Part shown: one piece after another, positions 2,306 to 24,331 of the stretch | Position numbering within the stretch: the first letter of the stretch is position 1 | Layout: each line of letters opens with the position of its first letter | IMG/VR virus record: IMGVR_UViG_2778261216_000006 | Reading direction: 5' to 3' (one strand) | Source: a virus | Taxonomy: Duplodnaviria; Heunggongvirae; Uroviricota; Caudoviricetes | DNA length: 24,331 nt | Notes under the pieces: generated by a model | What the model saw: only the letters and a program-made list of their open reading frames with translations | Databases searched by the model: none | Told to the model about the DNA's origin: nothing | Translations under genes and position numbers: made by a program

Positions 2306-2309
2306 CACG

Positions 2310-2591: not shown

Positions 2592-2604
2592 GCTGCTGAC
2601 CTCA

Positions 2605-4606: not shown

Positions 4607-4728
4607 GCTTATTTTTCGCCAGATTATTTTTCAAAAAATTCCCGTGCATAAAAATTTGAGGAGGCGTTCGGTGCCCGGCGGGGTCGGGTTTGTCCTGAAA
4701 ACGCCCCCCACCCCGTCATACAGCCTCA

Positions 4729-7174: not shown

Positions 7175-7175
7175 A

Positions 7176-7748: not shown

Positions 7749-7787
7749 AAAACACTAAAGGGGCTTTTAAGCCCCTTCTGTATGCTG

Positions 7788-8993
7788 TTAATCGTCGTCC
7801 TGTGGCAGTTCCAGAATCTTGATCGCGTTCGAATCCACCACGCCACCGCCTAAATATTTCTGCGTGAAAATTTTGATGAAGCCCGGCTCTGTGAGGTTGT
7901 CCGGTCTGGTGCGAACACCTGTTTCGTGATCAACAATGTAGTAACCGCGTTTGAAGTCACCCAGGGCAATAACGTTATCAGGCATAAACTCCAGATATTC
8001 GACCGGAAGGCCCAGCAACGTATCAGGATCACCCGCCTGTAAACGGTCGCGCCAGATGTAATCACCGTTCGCGTTCTTCACCTTCTGAAGTTTTGCCGCC
8101 GTCGTGGAGTTAACCACCCAGACCGCGTTTTTGCGGTATTTTTTACGTAATGCAAATTTCAGGTCGATCAACGGGTCCGCAGATGTCCACGCCAGAGATT
8201 CGGAAGGTTTAATTACCTGCAACGTACCAAAATCACGCTCTTTGTCGTTCTTCTCTGCACGGGGTACGGATAAAAAACCTTTTGCTTTTTTGTCACCGTC
8301 GCCCACAACCAGATCGCTTTCTTCGGTTTCCGTGAAGGTGTCGCCAATCTCACCCGTCAGCCATGAAAGGATGTCCACATCGGAAAAATCCACGATTTCC
8401 TGTGTGGTGCGCGGGTACGCATAGACCGGATACAGCTTAATGCTCACCTCGTTAATCTGCGGGGTGCTGGTCTGTTCGCGTGTCTTACCCTCTTCACCGT
8501 GGTTAACGGTCGCACCGCCAGCGGAAACAAGCTGCTTAAACTCGTTGCTGCTGATTTTCTTCACGGTACAGATGCGGCGCATGGTGGACTCATCCGCCAG
8601 CATTCGCATGATTTCGGTGTTCAGCTCGGGGATAACGGTATAACCACCATCAGCGGGAACGCCTGTACTTAATGCGCGGGTTTCACCCGTCAGAATGTAG
8701 TTTCGTAGTTCTGCGGGGTCAGTGGTCTGACTGCTTTTACCTGGCTTGCTGCGCTCTTCGTCTGCAATGGCTTCAAGGCGGGAAATGTCTTTATCGAGGG
8801 ATTCAGCTTTAGCGCGTAATTCGTCAAATTTTGCGCCCTCAGCATCGTTAAGACTGCGGTTTTCTTTTTCCGCGTTCTCCAGCATGTCGCGCATCTGATT
8901 TTTAATGGCGGTTTTCTGCTGGCGTAATTCGATTATTCTCGGCATAAAAAAAGTCCTGGGGTTAAGTAAGGAACTCCAGGACGCGGCAAACAC
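7788..8993 (-). CDS. Major capsid protein, HK97 family
   Basis: 401 aa; N-terminal coiled-coil delta-domain-like region, then a conserved HK97-fold body; start (GTG at 8993 or internal Met) uncertain. Confidence 0.93.
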   Translation of the reverse strand: MFAASWSSLLNPRTFFMPRIIELRQQKTAIKNQMRDMLENAEKENRSLNDAEGAKFDELRAKAESLDKDISRLEAIADEERSKPGKSSQTTDPAELRNYILTGETRALSTGVPADGGYTVIPELNTEIMRMLADESTMRRICTVKKISSNEFKQLVSAGGATVNHGEEGKTREQTSTPQINEVSIKLYPVYAYPRTTQEIVDFSDVDILSWLTGEIGDTFTETEESDLVVGDGDKKAKGFLSVPRAEKNDKERDFGTLQVIKPSESLAWTSADPLIDLKFALRKKYRKNAVWVVNSTTAAKLQKVKNANGDYIWRDRLQAGDPDTLLGLPVEYLEFMPDNVIALGDFKRGYYIVDHETGVRTRPDNLTEPGFIKIFTQKYLGGGVVDSNAIKILELPQDDD

Positions 8994-9035
8994 TCAACCG
9001 TTTTTCATAAGGAAATCAGCAATCGCACCGATCGT

Positions 9036-9083
9036 TTTCCCGCCTGGTAATGAATATTGGCGAGCACATTAACAGGCGGGAAA
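9036..9083. promoter_or_regulatory. 11-bp perfect inverted repeat TTTCCCGCCTG / CAGGCGGGAAA with 26-nt spacer in the leader of the capsid operon
   Basis: Read directly; located 45-90 bp upstream of the capsid gene start. Confidence 0.35.
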
Positions 9084-9157
9084 GTGGCCCCAGCGTCCTG
9101 GCACCACGGGCGAGAATAATCATGATTCAGTTCGGGTAAAATATGCCGATCCGCTCA

Positions 9158-9189
9158 GTGAACAACGTGGAACAACCACGAACAAATAA
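9158..9189. promoter_or_regulatory. Dyad motif GTGAACAACGTGGAACAACCACGAACAA upstream of the capsid operon
   Basis: Contains palindrome CGTGG-AACAA-CCACG; near-identical copy, inverted, at 15115-15145; half-sites inside both att arm repeats. Confidence 0.4.
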
Positions 9190-9226
9190 TTTACAAAAAA
9201 TAACAAAAAGCCGGATTGCTCCGGCT
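9190..9226 (-). terminator. Rho-independent terminator (hairpin AGCCGGAGCAATCCGGCT plus T-run on minus strand)
   Basis: Stem-loop followed by TTTTTGTTATTTTTT on the minus strand, just downstream of ORF 9246..9470. Confidence 0.6.
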
Positions 9227-9245
9227 GTATGTGCTGTATGGGTGC

Positions 9246-9470
9246 TCAGTCTCTGATCCCTTTCAGAAATTCTATCAATGCATCTGTCTGTTCAGGATTT
9301 ACTGCCAGCATTTCACCGGATAGCGCGCAACGAACAAAACCATGATGATCCTTTTCAATCAGCGCCCCCGTTTCCAGAAATGCGCGGTAATCAGTGATAT
9401 TCATCGTCTCCATGTTGTCAGCATGGTATTTATCACGCTGTTTAAGTATCTCATCAAATTTCATCGGCAT
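9246..9470 (-). CDS. Hypothetical protein (74 aa), moron-like gene flanked by two copies of the same terminator
   Basis: Internal Met of track ORF 9246..9548, preceded by GAGGAAAACGCA; no family recognised. Confidence 0.55.
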   Translation of the reverse strand: MPMKFDEILKQRDKYHADNMETMNITDYRAFLETGALIEKDHHGFVRCALSGEMLAVNPEQTDALIEFLKGIRD

Positions 9471-9562
9471 TGCGTTTTCCTCTGTTGTGTCTGTTTGTTT
9501 CAGATAGTAACTATGCCGGACCGTGACGAAAAGCCAGTAGTGCTCCATACCGTTTCAAATGA

Positions 9563-9588
9563 CGCAAAAAAGCCGGATTGCTCCGGCT
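9563..9588 (-). terminator. Rho-independent terminator (second copy of AGCCGGAGCAATCCGGCT hairpin)
   Basis: Same hairpin plus T-run on the minus strand, downstream of the PerC-like gene. Confidence 0.6.
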
Positions 9589-9610
9589 GCGTGGTGTGGT
9601 TCTGATATTC

Positions 9611-9859
9611 CTACTCAGCTAATTTGCTCAGCCCCATGTCTGCGTAAGTGCGATTTACTGCATTTCTCAGGTCTGCGTAGTTCTCCGTTGGCGGCTCCGG
9701 TGGCCTCTGTGCCTTCCTGGAACATTCCAGCCGTCGCATCGTAACCTGATGCCGTTCCTTGTCTGTCTCCACCAGTTGCATGACTTCACCCCATCGCGCC
9801 GACGCCCTCCGGTAAAATCCTTTCGCCTCGAGTTCCTCCGCTATGCGGTCATGTACCAT
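9611..9859 (-). CDS. PerC-family-like transcriptional regulator (82 aa)
   Basis: Start at internal Met with strong SD (GAGGGGGTGA); MVHDRIAEELEAKGFYRRASARWGEVM resembles the PerC-family N-terminus (from memory). Confidence 0.5.
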   Translation of the reverse strand: MVHDRIAEELEAKGFYRRASARWGEVMQLVETDKERHQVTMRRLECSRKAQRPPEPPTENYADLRNAVNRTYADMGLSKLAE

Positions 9860-9869
9860 CGTCACCCCC

Positions 9870-10280
9870 TCAGAACGGAATACCGTCACCGTAAGGGTCA
9901 TCGCCTCCCGCTGGTGGCTGATTACCCTGTGTGCCTGTGGTTTTGCGTCTGTTCCCGCCTGGACGTGCCGCGCGGGCACTGATTACGCTGTCTGCAATAA
10001 CCTGATACCCCCGCCGCGTTTCCCCGTTCTGTCCGGTCCACTGGCTTACCTGCATCGTGCCGGATACGCTGGCAACATCGCCTTTTTGATGTTTAGCCAG
10101 GAAATCGGCCTGTTTGCCAAATGCGATAACCGATAACCATAACGTCGCCTGTCCGTCCTGTGCCTGGCTGCATGGCAAAGATACCGCCATACGCGCCAGC
10201 GTCATCGGTGTGCCCTTGCTGGTCTGTTTTACCTGCGGGTCGTCCACCAGCCGCCCGTAAGCCGCTATCTGTGCTGTCAT
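9870..10280 (-). CDS. Single-stranded DNA-binding protein (SSB-like)
   Basis: 136 aa; OB-fold core blocks, Gly/Pro-rich linker and acidic C-terminal tip ending DGIPF; ATGA overlap with the upstream gene. Confidence 0.8.
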   Translation of the reverse strand: MTAQIAAYGRLVDDPQVKQTSKGTPMTLARMAVSLPCSQAQDGQATLWLSVIAFGKQADFLAKHQKGDVASVSGTMQVSQWTGQNGETRRGYQVIADSVISARAARPGGNRRKTTGTQGNQPPAGGDDPYGDGIPF

Positions 10281-10528
10281 GCTGTCTGCTCTCCGGTTTT
10301 AACGTTGATTGTTGTTACCTGTTCCGCTTCGGCAATCTCCCGTTCTGTCAGCGTGGCAAAGTTTGCCGCCGCTGTTGTCATGAATGCGCTTATCAGTTCG
10401 GGATGCTCCTTCGCGTATCCTTCCCCCGCGTGGCGGTCTATCGTTCTGATTGCCACCTTTAAAGCCAGTTCAGCCATATCTAACGCCTTATATTTCGGCT
10501 CTGTTCTGTCTCTGCGTTTTTGGGTCAT
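10277..10528 (-). CDS. Hypothetical protein (start uncertain, 66-84 aa)
   Basis: Track ORF 10277..10558 overlaps the iterons at its 5' end, so an internal Met (10528 or 10477) is the likely start; translationally coupled to ssb. Confidence 0.5.
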   Translation of the reverse strand: MTQKRRDRTEPKYKALDMAELALKVAIRTIDRHAGEGYAKEHPELISAFMTTAAANFATLTEREIAEAEQVTTINVKTGEQTA

Positions 10529-10540
10529 TTCTCGCAACCT

Positions 10541-10730
10541 CTCACTTTTTCGCCTCACTTTTTCAAGCGTCTCACTTCGTCGCAGTTGGGATTTTTGGTT
10601 TTTCTATGTGTGTGTTTCATAAGTATTTTTTTACCCCTCACTTTTGAGGATGTATACAGGTCGAAAAGTGAGGGAGAGCAGGCTAATTTTGGCCCTCTTT
10701 CCACCCCCCTCGCTTTTGCTCCTCACTTTT
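10541..10730. repeat. Iteron array (CTCACTTTT repeats, at least 6 copies in both orientations) with AT-rich spacer: candidate island replication origin
   Basis: Copies near 10541, 10554, 10571 (variant), 10637, 10665 (inverted), 10709 (variant), 10722; immediately downstream of the replication helicase gene. Confidence 0.55.
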
Positions 10731-12138
10731 ATAGCGGCGCTACATCATCCCCATCGATACGAATAACCCCATCTTTTTCCAGCTTGTACAGCCAGCGCCG
10801 GAAGTTTTTCATTTCATACCCCAGTTTTTTCATGTCATCACGTAACAGCGGGATCGTGCACTTGTCGCCGTTCTGTGTGCGTGAACGGATGCACCCCCAT
10901 AGCGCGGTATGGTTTTCCGTCTTGTTCCCTGCCTCCTCGATGCGCTCCAGTTCAACGGGAGGGCGCGGCTTATCCACCACCACCAGCGACGTGATTAACT
11001 CCCCGTCAGCGTCGGTAAAAAGCTCCACCACCCGCAAATCATAGGCAGCCTCTTTGAGTTCCTCCGCGTCCTTCATTTTGGTGCATGAGATAACCAGCGC
11101 TTCGCTTCCTGCGTCCTCCCTGCGTATCCGGTATTCAGCATCCAGTGATGCACGAAATGCACTGGAACCGCGCGCGCCTTTCGTCTCATCCTTGCCGGAA
11201 TGGTGAACCACCAGCACCGTGGCCCCTGTGCGTCGTTTCAGTTCGTCACACCCACGGATAAACGCCCCCATGTCGCGGGAGTCATTTTCATCATTGCCGC
11301 CAAAGCAGCGCGCCAGCGTGTCCAGAATAATCATGCGAACAGGTTTACCCGTTTCCCTCTCCACCTGACTGGCAGCAATAACCAGTTCATCAACATCAAG
11401 CGGGACAGCCGGAAAGATGGGACGGTTTACCAGATACAGATTTTTCACCTGCTCACCGTGCACAACCTCCCAGGCTTTTACACGACGCGGAACGCCGATA
11501 CCGCCTTCACCAACCACATAGAGAACAGCGCCATGCGCCACCCTGCGGCCTCCCCACTGGCGGCCCGTGGAAACGTGACACGCCCACGATCCGGCAAGGA
11601 ATGATTTATAGGAACCGCTCGCCCCGTATATGCTGCAAAGCGACGATGCCGGAATAATCCCCTTTACCACGTAATCAAGCTGTGTGTCGTATCCGGTAGA
11701 TCCAACGCTCATCGGTAGCGTGGTTTTTCGCTGGGGAATTTTTTTCATGACCAGGCTTTCCCCGCGTTCCCATGCCTCCCTAAGCCGTGGAAGCTGGTCG
11801 CTCCATTCCTCCAGCAATTCGAAATTTTCAGAAAGTAGCCGCGCCTCCTGGACTCCGGCGATCGCCAGTTTCGTGGCGATGGTTAACAGCTGCGGCTCTT
11901 CAATATTTCCGGCGCGTATCACCGTCGCCCTGTATCGCCCATCATCAACAATCTGGAGGTTATCCAGTTCGCTTAACTGATAACGCCCCAGATAAACGGG
12001 AGGGACTGGATCGCCTGCTTTTTTGGCCTGTGCAATGATGTAATGCTCTGCGAATGAGTGAGCATCAATACCCGCAAAAATAATCGCATCGGTGTATTTG
12101 TCTTTCGGTAATAGTTTTACGTTCGGTGCCAGTTTCAT
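10729..12138 (-). CDS. Replication protein, RepA-like AAA ATPase/helicase (satellite pri-rep type)
   Basis: 469 aa; Walker A (YGASGSYKSF), Walker B (RMIILDTL), VVHHSGKDETKGARGSSA block. Confidence 0.85.
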   Translation of the reverse strand: MKLAPNVKLLPKDKYTDAIIFAGIDAHSFAEHYIIAQAKKAGDPVPPVYLGRYQLSELDNLQIVDDGRYRATVIRAGNIEEPQLLTIATKLAIAGVQEARLLSENFELLEEWSDQLPRLREAWERGESLVMKKIPQRKTTLPMSVGSTGYDTQLDYVVKGIIPASSLCSIYGASGSYKSFLAGSWACHVSTGRQWGGRRVAHGAVLYVVGEGGIGVPRRVKAWEVVHGEQVKNLYLVNRPIFPAVPLDVDELVIAASQVERETGKPVRMIILDTLARCFGGNDENDSRDMGAFIRGCDELKRRTGATVLVVHHSGKDETKGARGSSAFRASLDAEYRIRREDAGSEALVISCTKMKDAEELKEAAYDLRVVELFTDADGELITSLVVVDKPRPPVELERIEEAGNKTENHTALWGCIRSRTQNGDKCTIPLLRDDMKKLGYEMKNFRRWLYKLEKDGVIRIDGDDVAPL

Positions 12139-12434
12139 TTTTTACCCCTGAATCCGTTAATCATGGTTTTCAGCTTCTGGATGTTTGCCCGTGCCCTGGC
12201 GTTGCTGGTGGGCACGTTATGCGGCGCGGTCTGTACCAGAGAAAAATCACGCCGGAACTGATAAACAGGCATCACGCAATCATATTCGTAACCTTCACGG
12301 CGGTAAGTTACGCACCGTCCCGCCACGCCCTTAATCATTACCATGCCGCCGTACTGGTCGCGGTAAATATCACCGCGCGTAAATTTAGGGTGAGTGTTGC
12401 CACTGGCAGTTAAGCCAGAATATTTAAGTTTCAT
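12135..12434 (-). CDS. Hypothetical protein (99 aa)
   Basis: GGAGA SD ~9 nt upstream; stop overlaps the rep start (ATGA). Confidence 0.55.
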   Translation of the reverse strand: MKLKYSGLTASGNTHPKFTRGDIYRDQYGGMVMIKGVAGRCVTYRREGYEYDCVMPVYQFRRDFSLVQTAPHNVPTSNARARANIQKLKTMINGFRGKK

Positions 12435-12439
12435 TATTT

Positions 12440-12670
12440 TTATTCTCCGGTGTGGGGCGCGTTATTATTTTCGTGAATTGCCATTGCCTTATCCAGTTCA
12501 TCAATAACAGGCGATAGTAATGTCTGAATGGCTGCAAACATTAATGACGAAGATTCTTCGCCAGATTCCGGCACTTCAATTAATTTGCCTAACAACGCAT
12601 TCATTTCCTTTGCGCGGATTAATGCGTTTTCAGAGTGGATTAATACTTCAAAAGGGATTTTATGCATCAC
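12440..12670 (-). CDS. Hypothetical protein (76 aa)
   Basis: AAGGGAG SD upstream; tightly packed in the operon. Confidence 0.5.
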   Translation of the reverse strand: MMHKIPFEVLIHSENALIRAKEMNALLGKLIEVPESGEESSSLMFAAIQTLLSPVIDELDKAMAIHENNNAPHTGE

Positions 12671-12890
12671 AAATTTTCTCCCTTATTCTTTTAATGTCCT
12701 CATTAAGGATGTCTGTAACTTTTATCAGCGAGTTTTTGGCAATTATTTTTATTGTTTTAAGTTTTCTTTTGTCGTGCTCCGACTGTGATTTTCTCTCCAT
12801 GCTCTCCACCATGTGGGTAACATCAACGAGCGCACGTATCAGTATTTGCATTGCTTCTTCTGCTGCGTCCGGTGTGGTTTTATTGTGCAT
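12660..12890 (-). CDS. Hypothetical protein (76 aa), first gene of the replication operon
   Basis: Internal Met of track ORF 12660..12932 with strong SD (AGGGGGAAACCT). Confidence 0.5.
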   Translation of the reverse strand: MHNKTTPDAAEEAMQILIRALVDVTHMVESMERKSQSEHDKRKLKTIKIIAKNSLIKVTDILNEDIKRIREKICDA

Positions 12891-13122
12891 AGGTTTCCCC
12901 CTGGCGAATACGGGCGGCAAATACAGCAACACAACCGGACGGGCAACGGTTACGCGCTTCGCGTTCCGTCCAGGCGGTTACGTGGATGATTTGACGTTCT
13001 GACGCGCCAAAGGCAATAAAGCGCCAGATGTATTTATTCAGGTTGTGCGAGTCCCGCCCTTGCGGGTGTGTGGTATGATTTCTCATAGCTACCTCGATAC
13101 TATTGCTATCGTTGGTGGTTAG

Positions 13123-13156
13123 ACGCCCCGTATGTGTGCCACCACTGCGGGGCGTT
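13123..13156 (+). terminator. Conserved hairpin GACGCCCCG...CGGGGCGTT (copy 1) bounding cassette 1
   Basis: 8-bp GC-rich stem; near-identical copy at 13860-13896. Confidence 0.45.
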
Positions 13157-13167
13157 GCCTTTTGGTG

Positions 13168-13208
13168 CAAGTCACCTTTAAAGGCTATGCTACTTTCAGG
13201 TGACTTGC
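13168..13208. promoter_or_regulatory. 11-bp perfect inverted repeat GCAAGTCACCT / AGGTGACTTGC (operator-like) upstream of cassette 1
   Basis: Read directly; followed by a T-rich tract and TATACT -10-like hexamer (~13241). Confidence 0.4.
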
Positions 13209-13276
13209 ACTTCAAGCCTTTTTTTATTTTTTTTTCTGCGTATACTGAACGCCACCTAACAGTAAGGAGGCCAGTA

Positions 13277-13456
13277 ATGCCAACGGGTACAACCAACAAC
13301 AAATCACAACAAAAAACGGCTAGAGTTCCTCTAGAAGTTTTAAGCGAAATGAATTTGGTCAAAGAAGAAAACGAAACAGACGCGCAATTCATCGTTACAG
13401 CCATGCGCGGCGAAATCAAACGCCGCCAGCGCCGCAAGGCCAAAGAATCAGAATAA
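13277..13456 (+). CDS. Arc-like ribbon-helix-helix DNA-binding protein (59 aa)
   Basis: Strong SD AAGGAGG 6 nt before ATG; RVPLEVLSEMNLVKEENETDAQFIVTAM matches the Arc pattern (P-x-E-V-L ... EEN). Confidence 0.55.
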   Translation: MPTGTTNNKSQQKTARVPLEVLSEMNLVKEENETDAQFIVTAMRGEIKRRQRRKAKESE

Positions 13457-13461
13457 TCACT

Positions 13462-13505
13462 ATCAGCGCCGTGGTGTGAGGAACTCCGGCGCATTGCTTT
13501 ACAGG
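13462..13505 (+). promoter_or_regulatory. Conserved 44-bp intergenic element ATCAGCGCCGTGGTGTGAGGAACTCCGGCGCATTGCTTTACAGG (copy 1)
   Basis: Contains stem GCGCCG/CGGCGC; second copy at 14146-14189 with a single mismatch. Confidence 0.5.
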
Positions 13506-13513
13506 GCAGCACT

Positions 13514-13741
13514 ATGAACGAACACACATCATCACCGGAAAACGGCGAAAGCACGTCAACATATGAAATCATCCGGCAAAGGCAGTCAGAAGCCTGCGCC
13601 AGACTTGAGGAAGAACTAACCAGAACAAAAATACCACCACCAGCGCCGCGCTTAGTGCCACCAGAAAAATTTGCCCTTGAAGATTTTGTCGATAAATACC
13701 CACGGCGGCTTAAATCCGGCAAAAACCGACCGCCAGGATGA
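13514..13741 (+). CDS. Hypothetical small protein (75 aa), partner of the Arc-like gene
   Basis: ATG 9 nt after the conserved element; shares F-A-x-x-x-F-V-D-K-Y-P-R-R block with the 14198..14401 product. Confidence 0.4.
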   Translation: MNEHTSSPENGESTSTYEIIRQRQSEACARLEEELTRTKIPPPAPRLVPPEKFALEDFVDKYPRRLKSGKNRPPG

Positions 13742-13859
13742 GTGCACAAAACCGAACTATGAAACGGATTATTCCGTTTCCGGGGCGTTTGTGTGTGTAT
13801 AAAGAGTAAGCTATGCTCTTTTATAGCCATAATCGTTACCTCAATTAATGGTTTGGTTA

Positions 13860-13902
13860 GACGCCCCGTATGTGTTCCCATCACTGCGGGGCGTTGTTTT
13901 TT
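13860..13902 (+). terminator. Conserved hairpin GACGCCCCG...CGGGGCGTT plus T-run (copy 2), between cassettes
   Basis: Stem followed by GTTGTTTTTTG. Confidence 0.5.
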
Positions 13903-13945
13903 GTGCTAGTTGTGTGTAATGTGTATATACACATAAACACATTAT

Positions 13946-14140
13946 ATGGGTGTAATTGACGTGTCAACACACAAAAATGAAAGGCGTGGTAATCCTCCTT
14001 TCCAGTTCCGTTTAGATCCTGACTTACGGGAAAAGATGGAAAAAGCACAACAACAAGACGGTGATGACTCTTTAGCTGCTTGGATAAAACGAATAATCCG
14101 AAAAGAATTACAGCAACGCGGTATTGAACCCAAAGAATAA
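13946..14140 (+). CDS. Arc-like ribbon-helix-helix DNA-binding protein (59-64 aa)
   Basis: PPFQFRLDPDLREKMEKAQQQDGDDSLAAWIKRIIRKE follows the Arc pattern (from memory); start ATG 13946 or GTG 13961; palindrome ATGTGTATATACACAT just upstream. Confidence 0.55.
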   Translation: MGVIDVSTHKNERRGNPPFQFRLDPDLREKMEKAQQQDGDDSLAAWIKRIIRKELQQRGIEPKE

Positions 14141-14197
14141 AAAACATCAGCGCCGTGGCGTGAGGAACTCCGGCGCATTGCTTTACAGGTACACACA

Positions 14198-14401
14198 ATG
14201 ACCAATAAAGAATCAACCAATACACCATCGCAAAAAACGAACAGAGAGCACGAAAATATGGCGCTCGAGCATGAATCAGAAAGATTCGCTCCATGCGCTT
14301 TTGTCCTTGATGAGTTTCTAAAAAAATATTCACGTTCTGAACGGATGAAAATGGCAGCACAATACGGCCCCAACAAGCAAGGTAATTGCCCACCAGCCTG
14401 A
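14198..14401 (+). CDS. Hypothetical small protein (67 aa), paralogue of the 13514..13741 product
   Basis: Same position relative to the conserved element; shared FxxxxFVLDEFLKKYSR block. Confidence 0.4.
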   Translation: MTNKESTNTPSQKTNREHENMALEHESERFAPCAFVLDEFLKKYSRSERMKMAAQYGPNKQGNCPPA

Positions 14402-14473
14402 TAGCGGCTATCATTCCCGTGCTTATGTTTGGGATCACATACACATAAGGCGCAGCAGGTTAATTGTTCAGAA

Positions 14474-14506
14474 AGGCGGCTCCATATCGGGGCCGCTTTT
14501 TTTATG
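14474..14506 (+). terminator. Rho-independent terminator ending the plus-strand cassettes
   Basis: GCGGC...GCCGC stem followed by TTTTTTT. Confidence 0.55.
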
Positions 14507-14644
14507 CCTGAAAAACCCCAATTTTGTTGTTTTTCAGTTTCACCAGGGCGAACGAATCCCCGCCCACGTTCGGGCGCATATTCAATCTTCATAGTTATAT
14601 CTCTGTATTAGTGGATGTGTGGCGACTGTGTGCCGCCAGTCTTT

Positions 14645-14833
14645 TTAGTGAACTGCCTTGCAGCTATCCTTCCAGGCCAAAACCTCAGATAAAGACCAGC
14701 CAACAGAACGCCCACCAAGTTTACGACGTGATGGGAATTGTCCGGCCTTTTCCAGGCGGTAGCGGCATGAGCGGCTAAGGCCTGTTAGCTTTTCGCATTC
14801 TTTTTCACGTATAAACCGATCAGTGCTTAACAC
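14645..14833 (-). CDS. alpA: AlpA-family phage regulatory protein (Xis-like activator)
   Basis: 62 aa; LSEVLAWKDS-type C-terminus typical of the AlpA family; sits just downstream of the integrase as in PICIs. Confidence 0.88.
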   Translation of the reverse strand: MLSTDRFIREKECEKLTGLSRSCRYRLEKAGQFPSRRKLGGRSVGWSLSEVLAWKDSCKAVH

Positions 14834-14995
14834 TATTGCCCCCTTTCGTTTCTTAAAGAGTTATTTCGTGTTCTATTGCGTTGGGATGTGTCTGATTGTG
14901 TCAGGATGATTCAGAGTTGGCAAATGTTGGTGTCGCATGGTTTACAGAAAGAGGAATAATCAGGATAAAATCATTTAAATTCATGTTAATACAAA

Positions 14996-15030
14996 GGCAT
15001 AAAATCTTGTTTTATGCCTTTTTTCGCACG
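14996..15030. terminator. Hairpin GGCATAAAA-TCTTG-TTTTATGCC with flanking T-run between int and alpA
   Basis: 9-bp perfect stem followed by TTTTTT on the plus strand; weaker T-tract on the minus strand. Confidence 0.45.
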
Positions 15031-15114
15031 CTTTAACGCGTAATTCACTAATGTATAAAAAACCAGTCACACAAATAAAATCAGTCACTTATAAACCTGC
15101 GTACTTTTTCGCCT

Positions 15115-15145
15115 CTTGTTCGTGGTTGTTCCACGTTGTTTCACA
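15115..15145. promoter_or_regulatory. Inverted copy of the GAACAACGTGGAACAACCACGAACAA dyad motif
   Basis: Reverse complement matches 9158-9189 over ~28 bp; ~70 bp downstream of the int stop. Confidence 0.4.
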
Positions 15146-15207
15146 TTGTTCGCCGTTGTATCTGTGTGCTTATCCAGTATACGCATACTGAAAAAACACG
15201 AAAAAAA

Positions 15208-16458
15208 TTATTTTCTTCTGGCTGCTGGTAGTGCGGTTACGTTTTCATGTGTTCCCGCCAGTATCCCTAACCGCTCCGTCCACATATCCAGCGCATTGCG
15301 TTTAGCATCCAGATAACGGGAATGATTATAAACTCGCTGCATTCCTGGCATCTGGTGGCCTGTAAGCTGCTCCACGACGTGCGGATCAACGCCTAAATCG
15401 TTCAGCATGGTTGTAAAGGTGCGCCGGATGTCATGCAGTGACCAGTGAGGGTGTTTAAGCCTCCTGTGCGCTAATCTGCCGTACTGCGACACGCTGGTTT
15501 CCTGTTTCACTTCCCCCAGCAATAAGCCCGTGTGCCTGTTCTGCTCCACCAGCTGCGTGATGAACGGCAGTATCGCTTCCGGTATGGGCCGGAATATGGC
15601 TACCTTCGTTTTACTGTGCTCCTTCGGAACGGTCCAGAGCATTTCGGTAAAATCCCACTCGCCGATCTCAGATAACCTAAGTTCGACCGTCCGGCATCCG
15701 AACACAATCAGGAGGCGGATTAGCGCGATGTAGTAGGGGGAGAATATTTTTTTGTCCAGTGCCTGCAATAATTCGCCAAGTTCTTTGTTGCTTAAGACAC
15801 GCTCGCTTATATCCGGTTTTTTCCCAACGTCAGCCACACTCATATCATCAAGAACGTTGCTGATTGCATAGCGCCGCTTCCTGCAGAACTTAAGCGCCTG
15901 CTTGCATGTCTGTAGCAGGAACCCGGCGGAAACAGGGGCTTTCTTTGCCACCCGATCAAAACAGGCCAGCCAGTGCCGTAGCTCGCATTTATCCAGCGGC
16001 ATAGGGCCAATGTGCTGTATTACGTGATTATTTAGCCGCTTTTTCAGTGGGTCATAATCCACACGGTTTTCCTTTGCGTACGACTCAAGCCAGTAGGTGA
16101 GCGCATCGCCAACCGTTACAGGCTTTAACGCTTCCTGTACGGAGTAATTCATCTCATGGCGTGGATTTTTCCCTTCTGCCAGCCATGCACGACACTGGGC
16201 GGCTTTTTCCCTGGCTGATTTCAGGCTCAGATCAGGATAATTTCCCAGCTTAATGCGTTCCGGTGGTGCCCCCCTTCCCGCTCCGGCCCTGTAAGTGAAA
16301 TACCAGGTTAAAAGGCCGCTGGTTGAATGCCTGACACTCAGGTTTCCACCGTCATTAAGAAAGGCTGTTTTTTGGGCGGGTGTGCCGTTGATTTTCCTTA
16401 GCTGTGTATCGCTCAGTTTGTTAAGTGCTCTGCTCATAATTTTGAATCCGGTCATCAC
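15208..16458 (-). CDS. int: Tyrosine recombinase/integrase, P4-like family
   Basis: 416 aa; N-terminal arm-binding-like region, catalytic-domain blocks (HDIRRTF, LGHQMPG-type); start codon uncertain (GTG 16458, ATG 16455 or 16437). Confidence 0.94.
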   Translation of the reverse strand: MMTGFKIMSRALNKLSDTQLRKINGTPAQKTAFLNDGGNLSVRHSTSGLLTWYFTYRAGAGRGAPPERIKLGNYPDLSLKSAREKAAQCRAWLAEGKNPRHEMNYSVQEALKPVTVGDALTYWLESYAKENRVDYDPLKKRLNNHVIQHIGPMPLDKCELRHWLACFDRVAKKAPVSAGFLLQTCKQALKFCRKRRYAISNVLDDMSVADVGKKPDISERVLSNKELGELLQALDKKIFSPYYIALIRLLIVFGCRTVELRLSEIGEWDFTEMLWTVPKEHSKTKVAIFRPIPEAILPFITQLVEQNRHTGLLLGEVKQETSVSQYGRLAHRRLKHPHWSLHDIRRTFTTMLNDLGVDPHVVEQLTGHQMPGMQRVYNHSRYLDAKRNALDMWTERLGILAGTHENVTALPAARRK

Positions 16459-16535
16459 AATTAACTACACCATTAACTACACCGATCGTTGCACAAAGGG
16501 CTACAACGTGAAACAAGCTGGAACAAGAAAAATCA
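16455..16535. repeat. Right arm-type repeat (ATTAACTACACCATTAACTACACCG ... GAAACAAGCTGGAACAA)
   Basis: Direct repeat of 1541-1612, between the int start and the attR core. Confidence 0.5.
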
Positions 16536-16608
16536 CAAATCTGTTTATAATCAAAAACATAACGCACAACCTGAAACATTATGAAACGGCAAAAAACACT
16601 AATTGATA

Positions 16609-16618: not shown

Positions 16619-16685
16619 ATACTTCACGCATTACGTTAAGCATCCGTTATAATCGGTTGCAGATACCAGCCTGTGGATGCTTAAC

Positions 16686-17807
16686 ATGGAATACCAACTC
16701 ACTCTTAACTGGCCCGATTTTCTTGAACGTCACTGGCAGAAACGCCCGGTGGTGTTAAAACGCGGCTTTAATAATTTTATTGACCCGATCTCTCCAGACG
16801 AGTTGGCGGGTCTGGCGATGGAAAGCGAAGTTGACAGTCGACTGGTCAGTCACCAGGATGGCAAATGGCAGGTCAGCCACGGCCCGTTCGAAAGCTACGA
16901 TCATCTCGGTGAAACCAACTGGTCATTACTGGTACAGGCAGTGAACCACTGGCATGAGCCGACCGCCGCGCTGATGCGACCGTTCCGTGAACTACCGGAC
17001 TGGCGTATTGATGATCTGATGATCTCTTTTTCTGTACCGGGCGGCGGCGTCGGCCCGCATCTCGATCAGTACGACGTGTTTATCATTCAGGGTACCGGTC
17101 GTCGTCGCTGGCGAGTGGGCGAAAAGCTGCAAATGAAACAGCACTGTCCGCACCCGGATCTGTTACAGGTCGATCCGTTCGAAGCCATCATCGATGAAGA
17201 GCTGGAGCCTGGCGATATTCTTTATATTCCGCCAGGATTCCCGCATGAAGGCTACGCGCTGGAAAATGCGATGAACTATTCCGTGGGTTTTCGCGCGCCA
17301 AATACGCGGGAATTAATTAGCGGATTTGCCGATTATGTGCTGCAACGTGAACTGGGCGGCAACTACTACAGCGATCCGGATGTTCCACCTCGCGCTCATC
17401 CTGCGGACGTTCTGCCGCAAGAGATGGATAAACTGCGTGAGATGATGCTCGAATTGATCAACCAGCCGGAACACTTTAAGCAATGGTTTGGCGAGTTTAT
17501 ATCCCAGTCACGTCATGAACTGGATATCGCGCCGCCGGAACCGCCTTATCAGCCAGATGAAATCTACGATGCGCTGAAACAAGGTGAAGTGCTGGTGCGC
17601 CTGGGTGGTCTGCGCGTATTGCGCATTGGCGACGACGTGTATGCCAATGGTGAGAAGATCGATTCCCCGCACCGTCCGGCACTGGATGCACTCGCCAGCA
17701 ACATTGCGCTGACTGCGGAGAATTTTGGCGATGCGCTGGAAGATCCGTCATTCCTCGCGATGCTCGCGGCGCTGGTCAATAGCGGGTATTGGTTCTTCGA
17801 AGGGTAA
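16686..17807 (+). CDS. roxA: Ribosomal protein L16 arginine hydroxylase (JmjC/cupin oxygenase) RoxA/YcfD
   Basis: Protein MEYQLTLNWPDFLERHWQKRPVVL... recognised as YcfD; track ORF starts 3 codons upstream. Confidence 0.93.
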   Translation: MEYQLTLNWPDFLERHWQKRPVVLKRGFNNFIDPISPDELAGLAMESEVDSRLVSHQDGKWQVSHGPFESYDHLGETNWSLLVQAVNHWHEPTAALMRPFRELPDWRIDDLMISFSVPGGGVGPHLDQYDVFIIQGTGRRRWRVGEKLQMKQHCPHPDLLQVDPFEAIIDEELEPGDILYIPPGFPHEGYALENAMNYSVGFRAPNTRELISGFADYVLQRELGGNYYSDPDVPPRAHPADVLPQEMDKLREMMLELINQPEHFKQWFGEFISQSRHELDIAPPEPPYQPDEIYDALKQGEVLVRLGGLRVLRIGDDVYANGEKIDSPHRPALDALASNIALTAENFGDALEDPSFLAMLAALVNSGYWFFEG

Positions 17808-17819: not shown

Positions 17820-17886
17820 GCCGGATGCGGCGCTGATTGCGCCTTATCGTGCCTACATGCACTGAACGCCTGTAGGCACGATAAGT
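17820..17886. repeat. REP/BIME-type extragenic palindromic element
   Basis: GCCGGATGCGGCG...GCGCCTTATC and CGTGCCTACA...TGTAGGCACG palindromes between the convergent roxA and pepT genes. Confidence 0.7.
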
Positions 17887-17952
17887 ATGTTGACCAGTAT
17901 CAATATAACGGTTTCATCCCGGTAATTGGCAGTCCACATACGCATCGGGCAA

Positions 17953-19182
17953 TCACGACTTCCGTTGCGCCGTTAACTCGGCAATACGGACAATCACCTG
18001 CACCGCTTTTTCCATACCTTCCAGAGTCACAAACTCATGCTTACCATGATAGTTGTAACCGCCAGTGAACAGGTTCGGGCACGGTAATCCCATAAACGAC
18101 AACTGCGCGCCGTCGGTACCGCCGCGGATCGGTTTCAGTTCCGGTTCAATATCGCAGTCACGCATCGCCTGCTGGGCGATATCGATAATATGCGGATGCT
18201 CAACCACTTTCTCGCGCATATTGTAGTAACTGTCTTCAATCACCAGTTCAATGTAGCAATCAGGATGTAACCCTTTGCCCACTTTTTTGGCGATCTCCAT
18301 CATTTTACGTTTACGCGCTTCAAACTGTTTACGGTCGAAATCACGGATGATGTAGTGCATATCGGCTCGGTCAACGGTGCCTTTCATGCTCGCCAGGTGA
18401 TAGAAACCTTCATAGCCTTCTGTCATTTCCGGGCTTTCATCCGCCGGAACTTCCGCATGAATACGTGCCGCCAGCGACAGCGCATTTACCATCACTCCTT
18501 TCGCCGTGCCCGGATGAACATTGTTACCGACAATTTTGATATTGACCGATGCGGCGTTGAAGTTTTCAAACTCCAGTTCACCTACGCCACCACCGTCAAC
18601 AGTGTAAGCCCAGCGGGCATCGAAGGCATCAACATCAAAATGTTTCGCCCCTTTGCCCACTTCTTCATCCGGGGTAAAGGCGACGCGAATATCACCATGC
18701 GGAATGTTTTTCTGTTGCAATACCGCCAGCGCGGTCATGATTTCTGCAATACCGGCTTTGTCATCGGCACCTAACAAGGTTTTACCATCGGTAGTAATCA
18801 GCGTCTGACCCAGTAGCTGATGCAGCACCGGGAACATAACCGGTGATAAAACTTCATCGCCGATACCCAGCGCAATATCGCCACCGCGATAGTTTTCAAC
18901 AATTTGCGGATTCACATTTTTGCCGCTGCAATCCGGTGAGGTATCCACATGAGAAATAAAGCCAATCGCCGGGATATTGCCAGGGACGTTAGCCGGTAAC
19001 GTCGCCATCAAAGTGCCCTTCTCACTTAAGGTCACATTGATAAGCCCCATCTCTTCGAGCTGCTCTTTCAGCAGATGCAATAACTTCCATTGGCCTTCCG
19101 TGCTGGGAACCTGTCTCACCCCTGCTTTTGATTGGGTATCCAGAGACACGTAGTTCAAAAATCGCTCAAGTAGTTTATCCAT
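17953..19182 (-). CDS. pepT: Peptidase T (tripeptide aminopeptidase)
   Basis: Protein from [21 protein letters not shown]... recognised as PepT; M20 metallopeptidase motifs; track ORF extends 14 codons upstream. Confidence 0.94.
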
Positions 19183-19431
19183 GTAGTCACCCTCACTTTT
19201 TGTGACAACATTATTAAGAAGCAAGAAAAGACAAATATTGCGTCAGGTCACTTTTACCCCTGCAAGCGGGAATATTTATCAGCATTACCTTAATGAATAT
19301 AAAGCTAAGCCAGTAATTCACAACAAAGATTGGCGATTCAAGCGGTTTGCCGTAGAATTACCGCCCTCATTAAGAGTCACCAAGGTGGTTAACCACAAAC
19401 CCCGCATCGGTAAGCCATCCGTTGCGTTTAC

Positions 19432-20568
19432 ATGGGACAGAGTAAAAAATTGAATAAACAACCGAGTTCGCTTTCACCGCTGGTGCAATTGGCGGGAATT
19501 CGCAAATGCTTTGATGGTAAAGAGGTCATTCCCCAGCTGGATCTGACTATCAACAATGGCGAGTTCCTCACGCTGCTTGGCCCTTCTGGCTGCGGTAAAA
19601 CAACCGTTCTTCGCCTGATTGCAGGTCTGGAAACTGTTGATTCCGGACGCATCATGCTGGATAACGAGGACATCACCCACGTTCCGGCGGAAAACCGCTA
19701 TGTGAACACTGTTTTCCAAAGCTACGCACTTTTCCCCCACATGACCGTGTTCGAAAATGTGGCCTTTGGGTTGCGCATGCAAAAAACCCCCGCTGCTGAA
19801 ATTACGCCCCGCGTGATGGAAGCCCTGCGGATGGTGCAGCTGGAAACCTTCGCTCAACGCAAACCGCATCAGCTCTCTGGTGGTCAACAGCAACGCGTCG
19901 CCATTGCCCGCGCGGTGGTTAACAAGCCTCGTCTGTTGTTGCTGGATGAGTCGCTCTCAGCGCTGGATTACAAACTGCGTAAGCAAATGCAGAACGAGCT
20001 GAAAGCGTTACAGCGTAAGCTTGGCATTACATTCGTCTTCGTGACTCACGACCAGGAAGAAGCACTCACCATGTCGGACAGGATTGTGGTGATGCGCGAT
20101 GGTCGCATTGAGCAAGACGGCACGCCGCGTGAAATCTACGAAGAGCCGAAAAACCTGTTTGTTGCCGGCTTCATTGGCGAAATCAATATGTTTAACGCCA
20201 CGGTCATCGAACGTCTCGACGAGCAGCGCGTACGCGCCAACGTTGAAGGCCGCGAATGTAATATCTACGTTAACTTCGCCGTTGAACCGGGGCAAAAACT
20301 GCATGTTCTGCTGCGCCCGGAAGACTTACGTGTTGAAGAGATTAACGACGACAACCACGCTGAAGGGCTGATTGGTTACGTTCGCGAGCGTAACTACAAA
20401 GGCATGACGCTGGAGTCGGTTGTTGAACTTGAAAATGGCAAGATGGTGATGGTCAGCGAATTCTTCAATGAAGACGACCCTGACTTTGACCACTCTCTCG
20501 ACCAAAAAATGGCCATTAATTGGGTAGAAAGCTGGGAGGTCGTACTGGCTGATGAAGAACACAAGTAA
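19432..20568 (+). CDS. potA: Spermidine/putrescine ABC transporter ATP-binding protein PotA
   Basis: 378 aa; Walker [13 protein letters not shown] signature LSGGQQQRV, Walker B LLLLDE. Confidence 0.96.
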
Positions 20569-21415
20569 GTTCCAGAATGTAGTGATTGTCACTATTGTCG
20601 GTTGGCTTGTGTTGTTTGTCTTTCTGCCCAACCTGATGATCATTGGCACCAGCTTTTTGACCCGCGACGACGCCAGTTTCGTCAAAATGGTCTTTACGCT
20701 GGATAACTACACGCGTCTGCTCGATCCGCTCTATTTTGAAGTGCTATTGCACTCGCTGAATATGGCGCTGATCGCCACCCTCGCCTGCCTGGTGCTGGGC
20801 TACCCGTTTGCCTGGTTTCTGGCGAAGCTGCCACACAAGGTGCGTCCGCTGCTGCTGTTTCTGCTGATTGTTCCCTTCTGGACCAACTCATTGATTCGTA
20901 TCTACGGGCTGAAAATTTTCCTCAGCACCAAAGGCTATCTCAACGAGTTTTTGCTCTGGCTGGGCGTTATCGACACACCAATTCGTATCATGTTCACGCC
21001 CAGTGCGGTGATTATCGGTCTGGTTTACATTCTGCTACCGTTTATGGTGATGCCGCTGTACTCCAGTATCGAAAAACTGGATAAGCCGTTGCTTGAGGCG
21101 GCGCGCGATCTCGGTGCCAGCAAGTTACAGACTTTTATCCGTATCATTATTCCACTGACGATGCCGGGAATTATTGCCGGATGTCTGCTGGTGATGCTGC
21201 CAGCGATGGGCCTGTTCTATGTATCCGACCTGATGGGCGGTGCGAAAAACCTGCTGATCGGTAACGTCATCAAGGTCCAGTTCCTCAATATTCGTGACTG
21301 GCCGTTTGGTGCAGCCACCAGCATTACGCTGACTATCGTAATGGGCCTGATGTTGCTGGTTTACTGGCGCGCTTCTCGTTTGCTGAATAAGAAGGCAACC
21401 GAAATAGATGATTAG
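20552..21415 (+). CDS. potB: Spermidine/putrescine ABC transporter permease PotB (3' end apparently remodelled by prophage insertion)
   Basis: Polytopic permease; potC/potD do not follow; the ORF ends ...NKKATEIDD where I recall the reference ending ...NKKVELE; true start may be GTG at 20582. Confidence 0.9.
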
Positions 21416-21447
21416 TGCTGAATATTCAAAGAGTTAATAGCAAATTT

Positions 21448-21481
21448 GGCATGCTTTTTACTTTTGCGTAAAAAGCATGCC
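21448..21481. other. Perfect 13-bp inverted repeat GGCATGCTTTTTA / TAAAAAGCATGCC with 8-nt loop
   Basis: Read directly just past the potB stop; no clear T-run, so a terminator role is uncertain. Confidence 0.45.
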
Positions 21482-21524
21482 TCTATCCATAAAATCAAAT
21501 AGTTATAATTTAATTTTGGAGAAT

Positions 21525-21564
21525 GTTTTTTTTCAGCGTCCTTTGATCTGATCGCTGAAAAAAC
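21525..21564. terminator. Bidirectional rho-independent terminator (T8 - TCAGCG...CGCTGA - A6)
   Basis: Stem flanked by T-run upstream and A-run downstream. Confidence 0.55.
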
Positions 21565-21572
21565 AACAAATA

Positions 21573-21911
21573 GTATAAAAATGAACAATCCGAATCCATG
21601 CATGACGTGTAGTGCCTGTTGTGCATTTTTCCGCGTCTCTTTTTACTGGGCAGAAGCTGACGATGCTGGCGGAAAGGTTCCGGGTCAGTCTCACTGAGCA
21701 AATATCCCCCTTTCATCGCTGTATGCGCGGCACCAGTCAGAAAAATCCCCGATGTGTCGCTCTGGCGGGAACTCCGGGTAAAAACGCATATTGCTCTGTT
21801 TACAAAAACCGTCCGTCCACGTGCCGGGAATTCGCAATGTCCGGAGAAAATGGCATCGCAAATGAAGCATGCAACCGCGCCCGGGCAAAATACGGACTTC
21901 CGGAAATCTGA
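21573..21911 (+). pseudogene. YkgJ-family CxxCxxCC cysteine-cluster protein gene, frameshifted
   Basis: N-terminus [38 protein letters not shown] stops at TGA; the rest ([14 protein letters not shown]...[29 protein letters not shown]) continues in the +1 frame (track ORF 21612..21911); consistent with loss of CT in a TCTCTC run. Confidence 0.5.
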
Positions 21912-22074
21912 AAAATCATCCATATCAACAGGATGCACGAAAAATGAGAGTTCCGTCACTTCCGGAATTAACTTTTCCGTGGCACTATTTAATCGGCATA
22001 GTGTATATCTTCACAATAATGACATAATCAACGCAGTTTATGGGGGAGGTGATGGTCCCCCATCTTTTTGTCTG

Positions 22075-22749
22075 TTATTCCTGTGCCCAGCCAACCCTGT
22101 ATGCCAGGATCTCATCCGCACTGCTCAGCGATTCCAGGTCCTTCTTCATGGTGCGCTGGCGAATGTGGATTTCCATCCCTTTAGTGAACATCGCCTGCTC
22201 TGCCGCTTCACTCAGCGCAATAAGCTCTTCTGCTGTCACCGGCACATCATTGTTTTCCGCATCCGTCCAGAAAAACGCCTCCGGCAGTTTCCCCGCTTTC
22301 GCTGCAGCCACCGACGGCTCAAGACGCGTCTGCGTTGACTTCCCGTAGTCCCATTTACGCCCATTGTGCTCAAACGTGTAGTTCGCCGCTTCCATCGCAT
22401 TACGCCAGGCGTTAATTTCATCGCCCTTCATCCCTCGCGCTTTCTCCGCGGTCAGCAGGTCCGTGATTTTCTCCCCGTCAAAACCCCAGCGCCCGCTCAG
22501 GTCAATTTTCCGGTTCTCCGGGGTATCCGGCACTTCTGCCACACTCTGGTTCACCGGCCACAGTAACGCAGTGTCCTTACCGTATCCCGTAATCACACCC
22601 CGGCTGTCATACACCACCTTCAGCGTCTCCGGCGAAAACAACGCCTGACACTCATACCAGTCCTGACCATCCTCAGACTTCAGGTACATCGCGCCTGCAA
22701 CATCCGGCTCCGCCGGGGTGTAATACGAAAAATTTCTGATATGCATCAT
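22075..22749 (-). CDS. Phage tail fibre assembly protein (Tfa-like chaperone)
   Basis: 224 aa; SEDGQDWYE ... VVYD ... VAEVPD N-terminal pattern of Tfa proteins; directly downstream of the tail fibre gene. Confidence 0.72.
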   Translation of the reverse strand: MMHIRNFSYYTPAEPDVAGAMYLKSEDGQDWYECQALFSPETLKVVYDSRGVITGYGKDTALLWPVNQSVAEVPDTPENRKIDLSGRWGFDGEKITDLLTAEKARGMKGDEINAWRNAMEAANYTFEHNGRKWDYGKSTQTRLEPSVAAAKAGKLPEAFFWTDAENNDVPVTAEELIALSEAAEQAMFTKGMEIHIRQRTMKKDLESLSSADEILAYRVGWAQE

Positions 22750-22970
22750 GTTTCCGTGCCCTCCTCCGATACCGGCACCCAGACCGGCATTTTTTCCGCA
22801 CCGACGCCCCGCTTCATACCTGCCGGTGCAGCATCCGCTGCAAAGACTTTATACACCACATAATCCACCACAATACCGTCTTCCGGCCAGCGCCCTGCTG
22901 CCTCATAAACCGGCCGCAGGGACAGGGGATAAAACATATTCTCTGACGGTGAAAAAACATACTGTTCCAT
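22746..22970 (-). CDS. Hypothetical small protein (74 aa) between tail fibre and tfa
   Basis: Stop overlaps the tfa start (ATGA coupling); no family recognised. Confidence 0.4.
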   Translation of the reverse strand: MEQYVFSPSENMFYPLSLRPVYEAAGRWPEDGIVVDYVVYKVFAADAAPAGMKRGVGAEKMPVWVPVSEEGTET

Positions 22971-22979: not shown

Positions 22980-24331
22980 TCAGTATCCGATCGCTTCCCA
23001 TGAAAACTTGCCGTAGCATCCCCTGACTGTTATCAGAGTCACAGACACTAATGACGGATTCGACAGGGTATACATCTTAATGACGTTGGGGTCTCCCACT
23101 GCAGACACCTGAGCATTCAGAGCAGCAACCGGAAAAGCGACAGGAAAACGGATAGAGTGTTGTGTCATAAGCTTACCATCATCCTCACTTACCTCAATAC
23201 TGCCCCATTGCCGCAAACGACCGGTTACTTCATCACGCTCCCAGCCATTTACTGTCAGGCTTGCTGTTGTGGGCTTGTTTTTTGTGCTGTAATCCACCCG
23301 CCAGTGAAAACGTTGTGTGTCTCCGTAAACTGTACAGGTACAGACCGTGCCGTTCAGAAAACCATCGCCACCGTATTCGCCGATGGTGACCCGGACTATG
23401 GCTGCGTTATACGTCCCCATCACCTCAATGGCGCAGCCTCCCAGATTGAGTTTTCCCGGTCCGACATCCGTGATGACCTTATTAAATTCCGCAAGCAGTG
23501 ATGCCTTCATCATCCAGTAAGGCTGGTCAAATGCCCCCTTTTCTTTCAGCCAGGCCACAAACTCACTCGTGGTCCATTCACCGGTCTCCGTATGAATGTC
23601 CCGCCCGTATACTCTGGCTGCTCCCACGGTGTTCAGAAACTTCACCTTATCCGGGATATCGTCACCGTTTTTCGCTTTCTCCAGGCATCCGTCCGCTTTG
23701 TCCATTGCCGCTTTCACCGCTTTCGGGGTGGCTGCCTTCGTTTCATCATCACTGTCCGTTGCGCTGCTTAACTGCACAATTCCCTTCTGTGCCGTCGTCG
23801 CATCCGGCCCTCCCGGCTCGCCTTTTTCGCCCTTCTCTCCCCGTTCACCTTTCACACCCTGAAGCCCTGTGGTCCTGTCTCACCACGCTCACCCTTTGGC
23901 CCCCGCTCGCCGGTATCGCCTTTTGGCCCGGGAATACCCTGCGGCCCGGTGTCCCCCTTATCCCCCTTCGGTCCCCGCGCATTCTCTGCCCGTTTTTTTG
24001 CCTCCTCCGCACTGGCTGCGGAGGCTTCCGCACGTTTCAGGATTTCCGCTGCCACCGCTTCCAGCTCTGCAAGGGCTTTCGGGTAATACTGTGCGTCTTC
24101 CAGGTCCATCAGAAATTTATTCAGCGTTCCCGGTGCAGAATCCGCCTTCACCAGAATGTCACCCACATATGACGGCGCGTACCCTTCCGTGTTCAGCGTC
24201 ACCCGGTACAGACCCGGCTCAACATCCATACTGTAACTGCCGGTTTCCCCCGGCTGACCATACGCCACCGTGGTGACAATCACCGTCTCCGTTGTACGGC
24301 GCGCTTTCAGCTCTATCGTGCATCCCGGTAC
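22980..24331 (-). pseudogene. Side tail fibre protein with collagen-like Gly-X-Y repeats, frameshifted near 23852 (5' part beyond window)
   Basis: Upstream frame (open to the window edge) ends ...GERGETGPQGFRV*; the repeats continue in another frame as GVKGERGEKGEKGEPGGPD...; a single missing base in GGC(C)TTCAGGGT would restore one ORF. Confidence 0.7.

Follow-up and report, generated by a model that had tools for sequence, protein, structure and literature searches.

Phage 21 and the e14 element integrate in the 3′ end of icd and carry a substitute 3′ end for this gene. In E. coli pathogens, prophages have been described at potB in clade 8 of O157:H7 and also in O145:H28 (PMC9997748, PMC7067040), CFT073 has the 44-kb prophage PhipotB (PMC3573123), and potC is a recognised integration site of Stx phages in LEE-negative STEC (PMC8065619), where potB/potC Stx2 prophages are attributed to Steyert et al. 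2012 (as cited in PMC8065619). Prophages at potB/potC have also been reported in the O113:H21 strains 4, 00-3076, RM10466, and EH41 (PMC9453080), all of which were among the matches to the junction or the ykgJ-like gene analysed here. These reports bear out the initial annotation, which had named the potB 3′ end as a site used by prophages of pathogenic E. coli; the potB/potC insertion site is already catalogued for prophages and Stx phages, and the junction examined here is not new. The small host gene ykgJ has been connected with both bacterial physiology and prophages: ykgJ mutants showed biofilm-fitness and filamentation phenotypes in a transposon study (PMC8743551), and STEC prophages carry ykgJ/ecpE-derived DNA as a secondary attB, termed attB-in-PP_2 (Nakamura et al. 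2021, PMC8112680).

The window, i.e., the whole stretch of DNA analysed (24,331 nucleotides, IMG/VR record IMGVR_UViG_2778261216_000006), begins in host genes and ends inside a prophage (Table 1). No RNA elements were detected anywhere in it using Rfam at gathering thresholds and tRNA scans. Homology to K-12 spans positions 1-1466 and is found again from 16609 onward, the two segments overlapping by 7 nt in K-12 coordinates. The intervening island contains genes for an integrase, an HTH regulator, an Icd-like protein, a RepA-family helicase, SSB, PerC, HK97-type capsid, protease and portal, head-closure and connector proteins, HNH, and small (P27-type) and large terminase subunits; no tail genes were found in it. 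Such a gene set is that of a putative capsid-forming phage-inducible chromosomal island. Further downstream, the roxA-pepT spacer (17832-17957) exceeds its K-12 counterpart by ~100 nt and interrupts the homology to K-12, which may reflect insertion of a small repetitive element.

Table 1. Features of the window, based on the ORF listing and on comparison with K-12 and annotated relatives
Feature	Position	Strand	Description
phoQ	1-1461		left end of window
Inserted island	1467-16608		15.1 kb, between phoQ and roxA
roxA	16677-17807
pepT	17953-19224	-
potA	19432-20568
potB	20552-21415	+	287 aa, intact
Attachment-site core TGAATAAGAAGG	21384-21395		12 bp; host/phage crossover placed here
Phage-supplied potB 3′ end	21395-21415	+	GCA ACC GAA ATA GAT GAT TAG, encoding ATEIDD and stop
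Phage DNA	past potB to window end		ykgJ-like, tfa/DUF4376, 74-aa ORF, tail fibre
attP-derived arm, tail-fibre side (P arm in lambda terms)	21396-21580		185 nt between core and ykgJ-like start
Perfect inverted repeat	21448-21481		14-bp arms
Perfect inverted repeat	21528-21563		11-bp arms
ykgJ-like (PF03692, CxxCxxCC) pseudogene	21581-21911	+	split into two frames
Terminator-like hairpin and T-run	22040-22063	+	between convergent ykgJ-like and tfa genes
Tail-fibre assembly/DUF4376 gene (tfa)	22075-22749	-	224 aa; Pfam DUF4376 7.5e-18; phrog_11571 5e-148
Small tail-module ORF	22746-22970	-	74 aa; phrog_19350 4e-47; phrog_188 tail fibre assembly
Prophage tail-fibre gene	22980-24331	-	runs off window; frameshifted

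Alignment to the K-12 potB-potC region revealed near identity up to position 21395, the last base with K-12 potB homology (the sequence up to it being ...CTGAATAAGAAGG), and unrelated sequence beyond it. When the whole window was compared with the K-12 region by BLAST, the match ended at the same base. Host synteny is therefore broken at a short, defined core, a feature of site-specific integration, and the genes inside the junction are phage structural genes (tfa/DUF4376, phrog_11571, and a tail fibre gene), which are annotated likewise in relatives. In strain GE3, the integrase-side junction reads ...CCTTA TGAATAAGAAGG TGGAACTCGA ATG, the last triplet being the start of potC; given that TGAATAAGAAGG is present both on the potB side and before potC, the two junctions share a 12-bp core. 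A 161-nt K-12 sequence spanning potB-potC was used as a site-occupancy probe in 5,426 complete E. coli genomes and was unbroken in 3,800, implying that the potB site is occupied in ~30% of complete E. coli genomes. In occupied genomes, the probe splits such that its potB part ends at position 69 and its potC part starts at position 58 (an overlap of exactly 12 nt), and this breakpoint at the core is common to ~1,600 occupied genomes. The exact junction of the window was found in 78 complete genomes, with 98-99.8% identity. Two proposals of the initial annotation, that potB ends in prophage-adjacent sequence and that integration took place at the potB 3′ end, were thus confirmed by the break of K-12 homology inside TGAATAAGAAGG and by the presence of the same core and breakpoint in other potB-integrated prophages, such as those of GE3 and HY220605.

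Whole prophages in relatives provide the context that the window lacks. GE3 has a complete 46.6-kb lambdoid prophage at potB, one end of which corresponds to the window junction, in the order potC, int, xis, exo ... terminase, head, tail, J, hok, stf (tail fibre), tfa, ykgJ-like, and potB. HY220605, the nearest relative at this locus (25 SNPs and one indel over 6 kb), has a prophage of ~48 kb that ends with int, followed by potC and potD, all intact. Nearly half of these SNPs (12 of 25) are packed into 28 nt (22624-22651) of the tail-fibre assembly gene, and this clustering resembles the trace of a short recombination or gene-conversion event. No stx gene is annotated in HY220605 or GE3, the closest relatives, and the window itself ends inside the prophage. 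It had also been noted that potC and potD are missing; this holds for the window, which terminates within the prophage, but in the relatives both genes lie intact past the integrase, ~47-48 kb away. Judging from these relatives, potC and potD are displaced, not lost, and the far end of the window's own prophage probably resembles theirs in having int, a second copy of the core, and potC. Absence of potC and potD from the window would also be expected if a deletion or rearrangement, rather than site-specific integration, had fused potB to prophage DNA and removed the two genes; yet the breakpoint falls exactly at the core used in ~1,600 occupied genomes, the junction is almost identical to that of 78 genomes, and potC and potD come after the integrase in both relatives inspected, which makes such an origin very improbable.

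We therefore regard it as quite probable that the junction is the tail-fibre-proximal end of an ordinary lambda-like prophage occupying a well-known E. coli site at the potB end; this degree of confidence applies to the best explanation as a whole, that is, lambdoid integration at potB together with a young ykgJ-like pseudogene. According to this explanation, a tyrosine integrase would have inserted a lambdoid prophage into the last codons of potB, with the crossover lying within the 12-bp core, and the window junction would correspond to attR in lambda terms. Six new codons and a stop come from the phage arm, which leaves PotB at its full length (287 aa), whereas potC and potD would have been moved to the integrase end, ~47-48 kb from potB.

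The PotB protein encoded at the junction is that annotated in relatives as WP_000799399.1, and it scores 551.6 bits against the NCBIfam PotB equivalog model (cut-off 348), with the match extending over essentially the full length. The native protein ends in ...LLNKKVELE, in which VELE is replaced by ATEIDD in the window. Eight potB-site loci representing four att-arm types were sampled for their PotB tails, and all eight encode a 287-aa PotB ending in ATEIDD, ATEIDN, VSEIGD, or VSELDD. Two synonymous changes in the Stx1a-phage arm leave the ATEIDD tail unaltered. The repeated rebuilding of a 287-aa protein in these sequences hints that PotB is kept functional. A native potB with a phage-type tail was not found in two degenerate-pattern scans (185,579 species-representative genomes) or in one scan of viral contigs, and the idea that the tail represents the native potB end of another species is hence unsupported. 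On the integrase side of GE3 (locus L005, 2208-2260), phage sequence preceding the core encodes ...VSRLMNKK in the potB frame, which is close to ...ASRLLNKK of PotB and uses different synonymous codons; this likeness suggests that attP may have arisen from the 3′ end of a diverged potB.

Between the core and the ykgJ-like gene lies an AT-rich arm (GC about 0.38-0.40) that is specific to potB-site prophages and absent from a serT-integrated prophage carrying the same ykgJ-tfa module. It is ~87% identical in the O157:H7 and Stx1a-phage junctions, and 687 genomes match at least 80% of its length. Two perfect inverted repeats occur in this arm, of which the one at 21528-21563 is not conserved in the Stx1a-phage arm. 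Neither fits the pattern of a terminator, and they are probably sites for recombination proteins or structural sites. The same core, followed by the O157-type arm and espK, was also observed in three IMG/VR contigs whose left flank is not potB, namely L020 (core at 7811-7835, minus strand), L021, and L025 (1844-1868); the left flank of L025 is located downstream of smpB and presumably also downstream of ssrA. The presence of core, arm, and espK beside a non-potB flank implies that a potB-type arm has been transferred to a prophage integrated elsewhere.

Just inside the prophage is a Cys-cluster gene of the YkgJ family, as had been recognised initially. Its intact form (GE3 and RM10466) is 330 nt long and encodes 109 aa, with a Pfam PF03692 match of 5.7e-12 (46.6 bits in the intact relative against a cut-off of 23). 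In the window, the C-terminal frame still reaches 30.6 bits, and the N-terminal 38-aa fragment alone has no Pfam match. The intact prophage protein is 83% identical to K-12 YkgJ (b0288), and nucleotide homology to the K-12 ykgJ locus extends from the ATG itself to just short of the stop codon; this restriction of homology to the ORF indicates that the ykgJ-like gene was captured from a host. Strong purifying selection acts on the intact prophage copies (dN/dS of ~0.06 versus K-12), and 11 synonymous and one non-synonymous differences were observed among prophage copies. Searches of PHROGs, PADLOC, and NCBIfam gave no match to the YkgJ-like protein, no relative of it was found in PDB, and AlphaFold2 run on an alignment of 39 sequences yielded an unusable model (pLDDT 41.7). 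A simple consensus scan found no sigma-70-like promoter upstream of the gene.

The distribution of this gene is that of a moron, a dispensable insert between phage modules: other potB-site prophages hold espK, a SAM methyltransferase gene, or nothing in the same slot. The ykgJ-tfa-tail-fibre module is also present in the serT-integrated prophage of RM10466, where the upstream sequence is different and the part shared with the window starts ~5 nt upstream of the ATG. No full-length ykgJ-like gene was found in sequenced E. coli phages, in which only 5′ or 3′ remnants occur near Stx-phage genome ends; one Acinetobacter phage record carries a 50%-identical ykgJ-like gene. Stx1a phages keep a 66-nt ykgJ 5′ stub (L007, 339-404) and O157:H7 keeps 27 nt of it (L009, 1742-1768), and these stubs, each followed by unrelated cargo (e.g., espK), indicate where recombination cut into a former ykgJ gene. 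In the window, the cargo slot, flanked by the att arm and by the tail-fibre assembly gene, holds a copy of host ykgJ, coding for a small putative metal-cluster (CxxCxxCC) protein; in related prophages this copy is intact and under purifying selection.

The window copy is broken, as proposed initially, being divided into two frames by a premature stop, and the frameshift is shared with HY220605. The nature of the lesion, however, differs from the 2-bp deletion in a TCTCTC tract that had been suggested. When the window and HY220605 were aligned with GE3 and RM10466, the TCTCTC tracts were identical in all four sequences, showing that such a deletion does not exist; the only difference in ORF length between intact and broken copies is one extra G in a GG run (CCGGTC to CCGGGTC, 21682-21684), giving a CDS of 331 nt instead of 330 nt. 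As a result, the first frame comprises 38 codons and ends at a premature TGA (21695-21697), the remaining 75 codons lie in the +1 frame, which is open to the normal stop, and the single open frame of ~109 aa of a functional YkgJ member is not present. A second lesion, a G to A change at 21611, replaces Gly11 by Ser inside the C-x-x-C-G-A-C-C motif. All four Cys residues (C7, C10, C13, and C14) are kept, but the motif itself is lost with Gly11, a residue that is invariant in 118/118 motif-bearing homologues and throughout the 39-sequence alignment. If the extra G is removed, the window ORF differs from that of GE3 by this single non-synonymous change and by no synonymous change, implying that inactivation was recent.

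The frequency of the frameshifted allele was estimated with a 61-nt probe over the lesion site in complete genomes carrying the ykgJ-like gene. The GGG allele was found in 1 of 81 such genomes, which is that of HY220605, whose ykgJ-like CDS is labelled 'frameshifted' in RefSeq; among the matches listed, the full-length ones were all one base shorter than the probe. These data also bear on whether the frameshift might be functional, with programmed ribosomal frameshifting or slipped-strand phase variation toggling the ykgJ-like gene. In favour of such a switch, the inserted G extends a mononucleotide run, and the frame downstream of it is open as far as the normal stop. However, slippage at useful rates needs tracts far longer than 2-3 bases, and neither a long slippery tract nor two common lengths were observed: the run has only 2-3 G (GG or GGG), the other 80 genomes have no GGG allele, the TCTCTC tract does not vary between frameshifted and intact copies, and the accompanying substitution at a residue that is otherwise invariant suggests that constraint has been lost. 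We consider a functional frameshift to be highly unlikely. The initial annotation had offered decay or slippage as causes; the frameshift and Gly11Ser are in line with decay, whereas the short run and the rarity of GGG speak against slippage. A rare and recent extra G together with Gly11Ser points to a young pseudogene rather than to a gene that is regulated or controlled by slippage, and this lineage would have recently lost its ykgJ copy through the +1 G frameshift and the change at the invariant motif residue.

A second frameshift is present in the prophage tail-fibre gene, which has lost one C in a region of collagen-like repeats (CCCC to CCC, 23865-23867) and is split as a consequence; the adjacent 74-aa tail-module ORF is annotated as hypothetical in relatives. 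The CCC allele is present in none of 80 complete genomes carrying that stretch and represents either an inactivating mutation unique to this prophage or an error of the consensus. The two homopolymer indels lie within 2.2 kb of each other, which might be explained by decay of the prophage or by consensus errors. It is conceivable that both frameshifts arose as errors of sequencing or assembly at short homopolymers and that the ykgJ-like gene is intact in the organism: both are single-base indels in runs of 2-4 identical bases, long-read consensus errors look the same, the tail-fibre indel is private to the window, and the only other assembly with the ykgJ allele could share platform or study with the source of the window. 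On the other hand, HY220605 differs from the window by enough SNPs to be a different strain and has GGG as well, the allele travels with Gly11Ser, a substitution of the type that homopolymer errors do not produce, and runs of 2-3 bases are not typical hotspots of sequencing error. Errors at both sites thus seem rather unlikely to us. Because the indel is shared with a distinct strain and is accompanied by a substitution, a real mutation is the favoured and quite likely cause of the ykgJ-like frameshift, as far as sequence comparison can tell.

Taken alone, this locus is of low significance, as its junction occurs in 78 complete genomes and the ykgJ-like frameshift had already been flagged by RefSeq in a near-identical strain. 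The analysis adds a little to this knowledge: the 12-bp core and the breakpoint of the potB att site are precisely defined, PotB was seen to be rebuilt as a 287-aa protein by every potB-site phage sampled, and the prophage ykgJ copy is recognised as constrained, host-derived cargo, whose 5′ stubs mark where espK-type effectors were swapped in. A broader reading would combine selection for PotB/potCD function in lysogens with the loss of an ancestral cargo gene that was itself selected, and we regard this combination as speculative and rather improbable. With respect to the first part, a six-codon acidic tail pattern, [AV][TS]E[IL][DG][DN], is common to four diverged att arms, and its constancy suggests that selection may keep the spermidine transporter working in lysogens. 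This would require that potCD, lying 47 kb from the potA promoter, be expressed from the integrase-side arm or by read-through from int; if true, polyamine uptake would be tied to the prophage state. With respect to the second part, the cargo slot would ancestrally have been occupied by the ykgJ copy, which T3SS effector genes would have replaced in EHEC later on, leaving stubs of 27-66 nt, and the loss of this copy here, with two damaging changes and no silent ones, could have been selected rather than simply neutral.

Among described elements, the potB/potC prophages of LEE-negative STEC (e.g., RM10466) are at the same site, are 98-99% identical to the window from potB through the att arm and the ykgJ-like gene to tfa, and encode the same PotB variant (WP_000799399.1); the difference lies in their ykgJ-like gene, which is intact at 330 nt, whereas the window copy has the extra G and Gly11Ser. 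PP_potB of O157:H7 and O145:H28 and PhipotB of CFT073 use the same core, have a homologous att arm (~87% identical), and likewise supply a new six-codon PotB tail (ATEIDN in O157:H7). In the cargo slot, O157:H7 has the T3SS effector gene espK and only a 27-nt ykgJ 5′ stub. As with phage 21 and e14 at icd, attP gives substitute 3′ codons that leave the target gene intact; in contrast to these elements, only six codons are replaced here and they do not match the native tail. K-12 YkgJ (b0288; PF03692/UPF0153) has 109 aa and the same Cys pattern as the intact prophage form, from which the window copy is set apart by being a prophage-borne pseudogene with homology to ykgJ in the ORF only. Finally, both attB-in-PP_2 and the window represent capture of chromosomal ykgJ-region DNA by lambdoid prophages, but attB-in-PP_2 is the intergenic region upstream of ykgJ (a secondary attB), whereas the window, in which homology starts at the ATG, has the ykgJ ORF without any ykgJ/ecpE intergenic sequence; the serT-site ykgJ copy carries 36 bp of the attB-in-PP_2 intergenic region.
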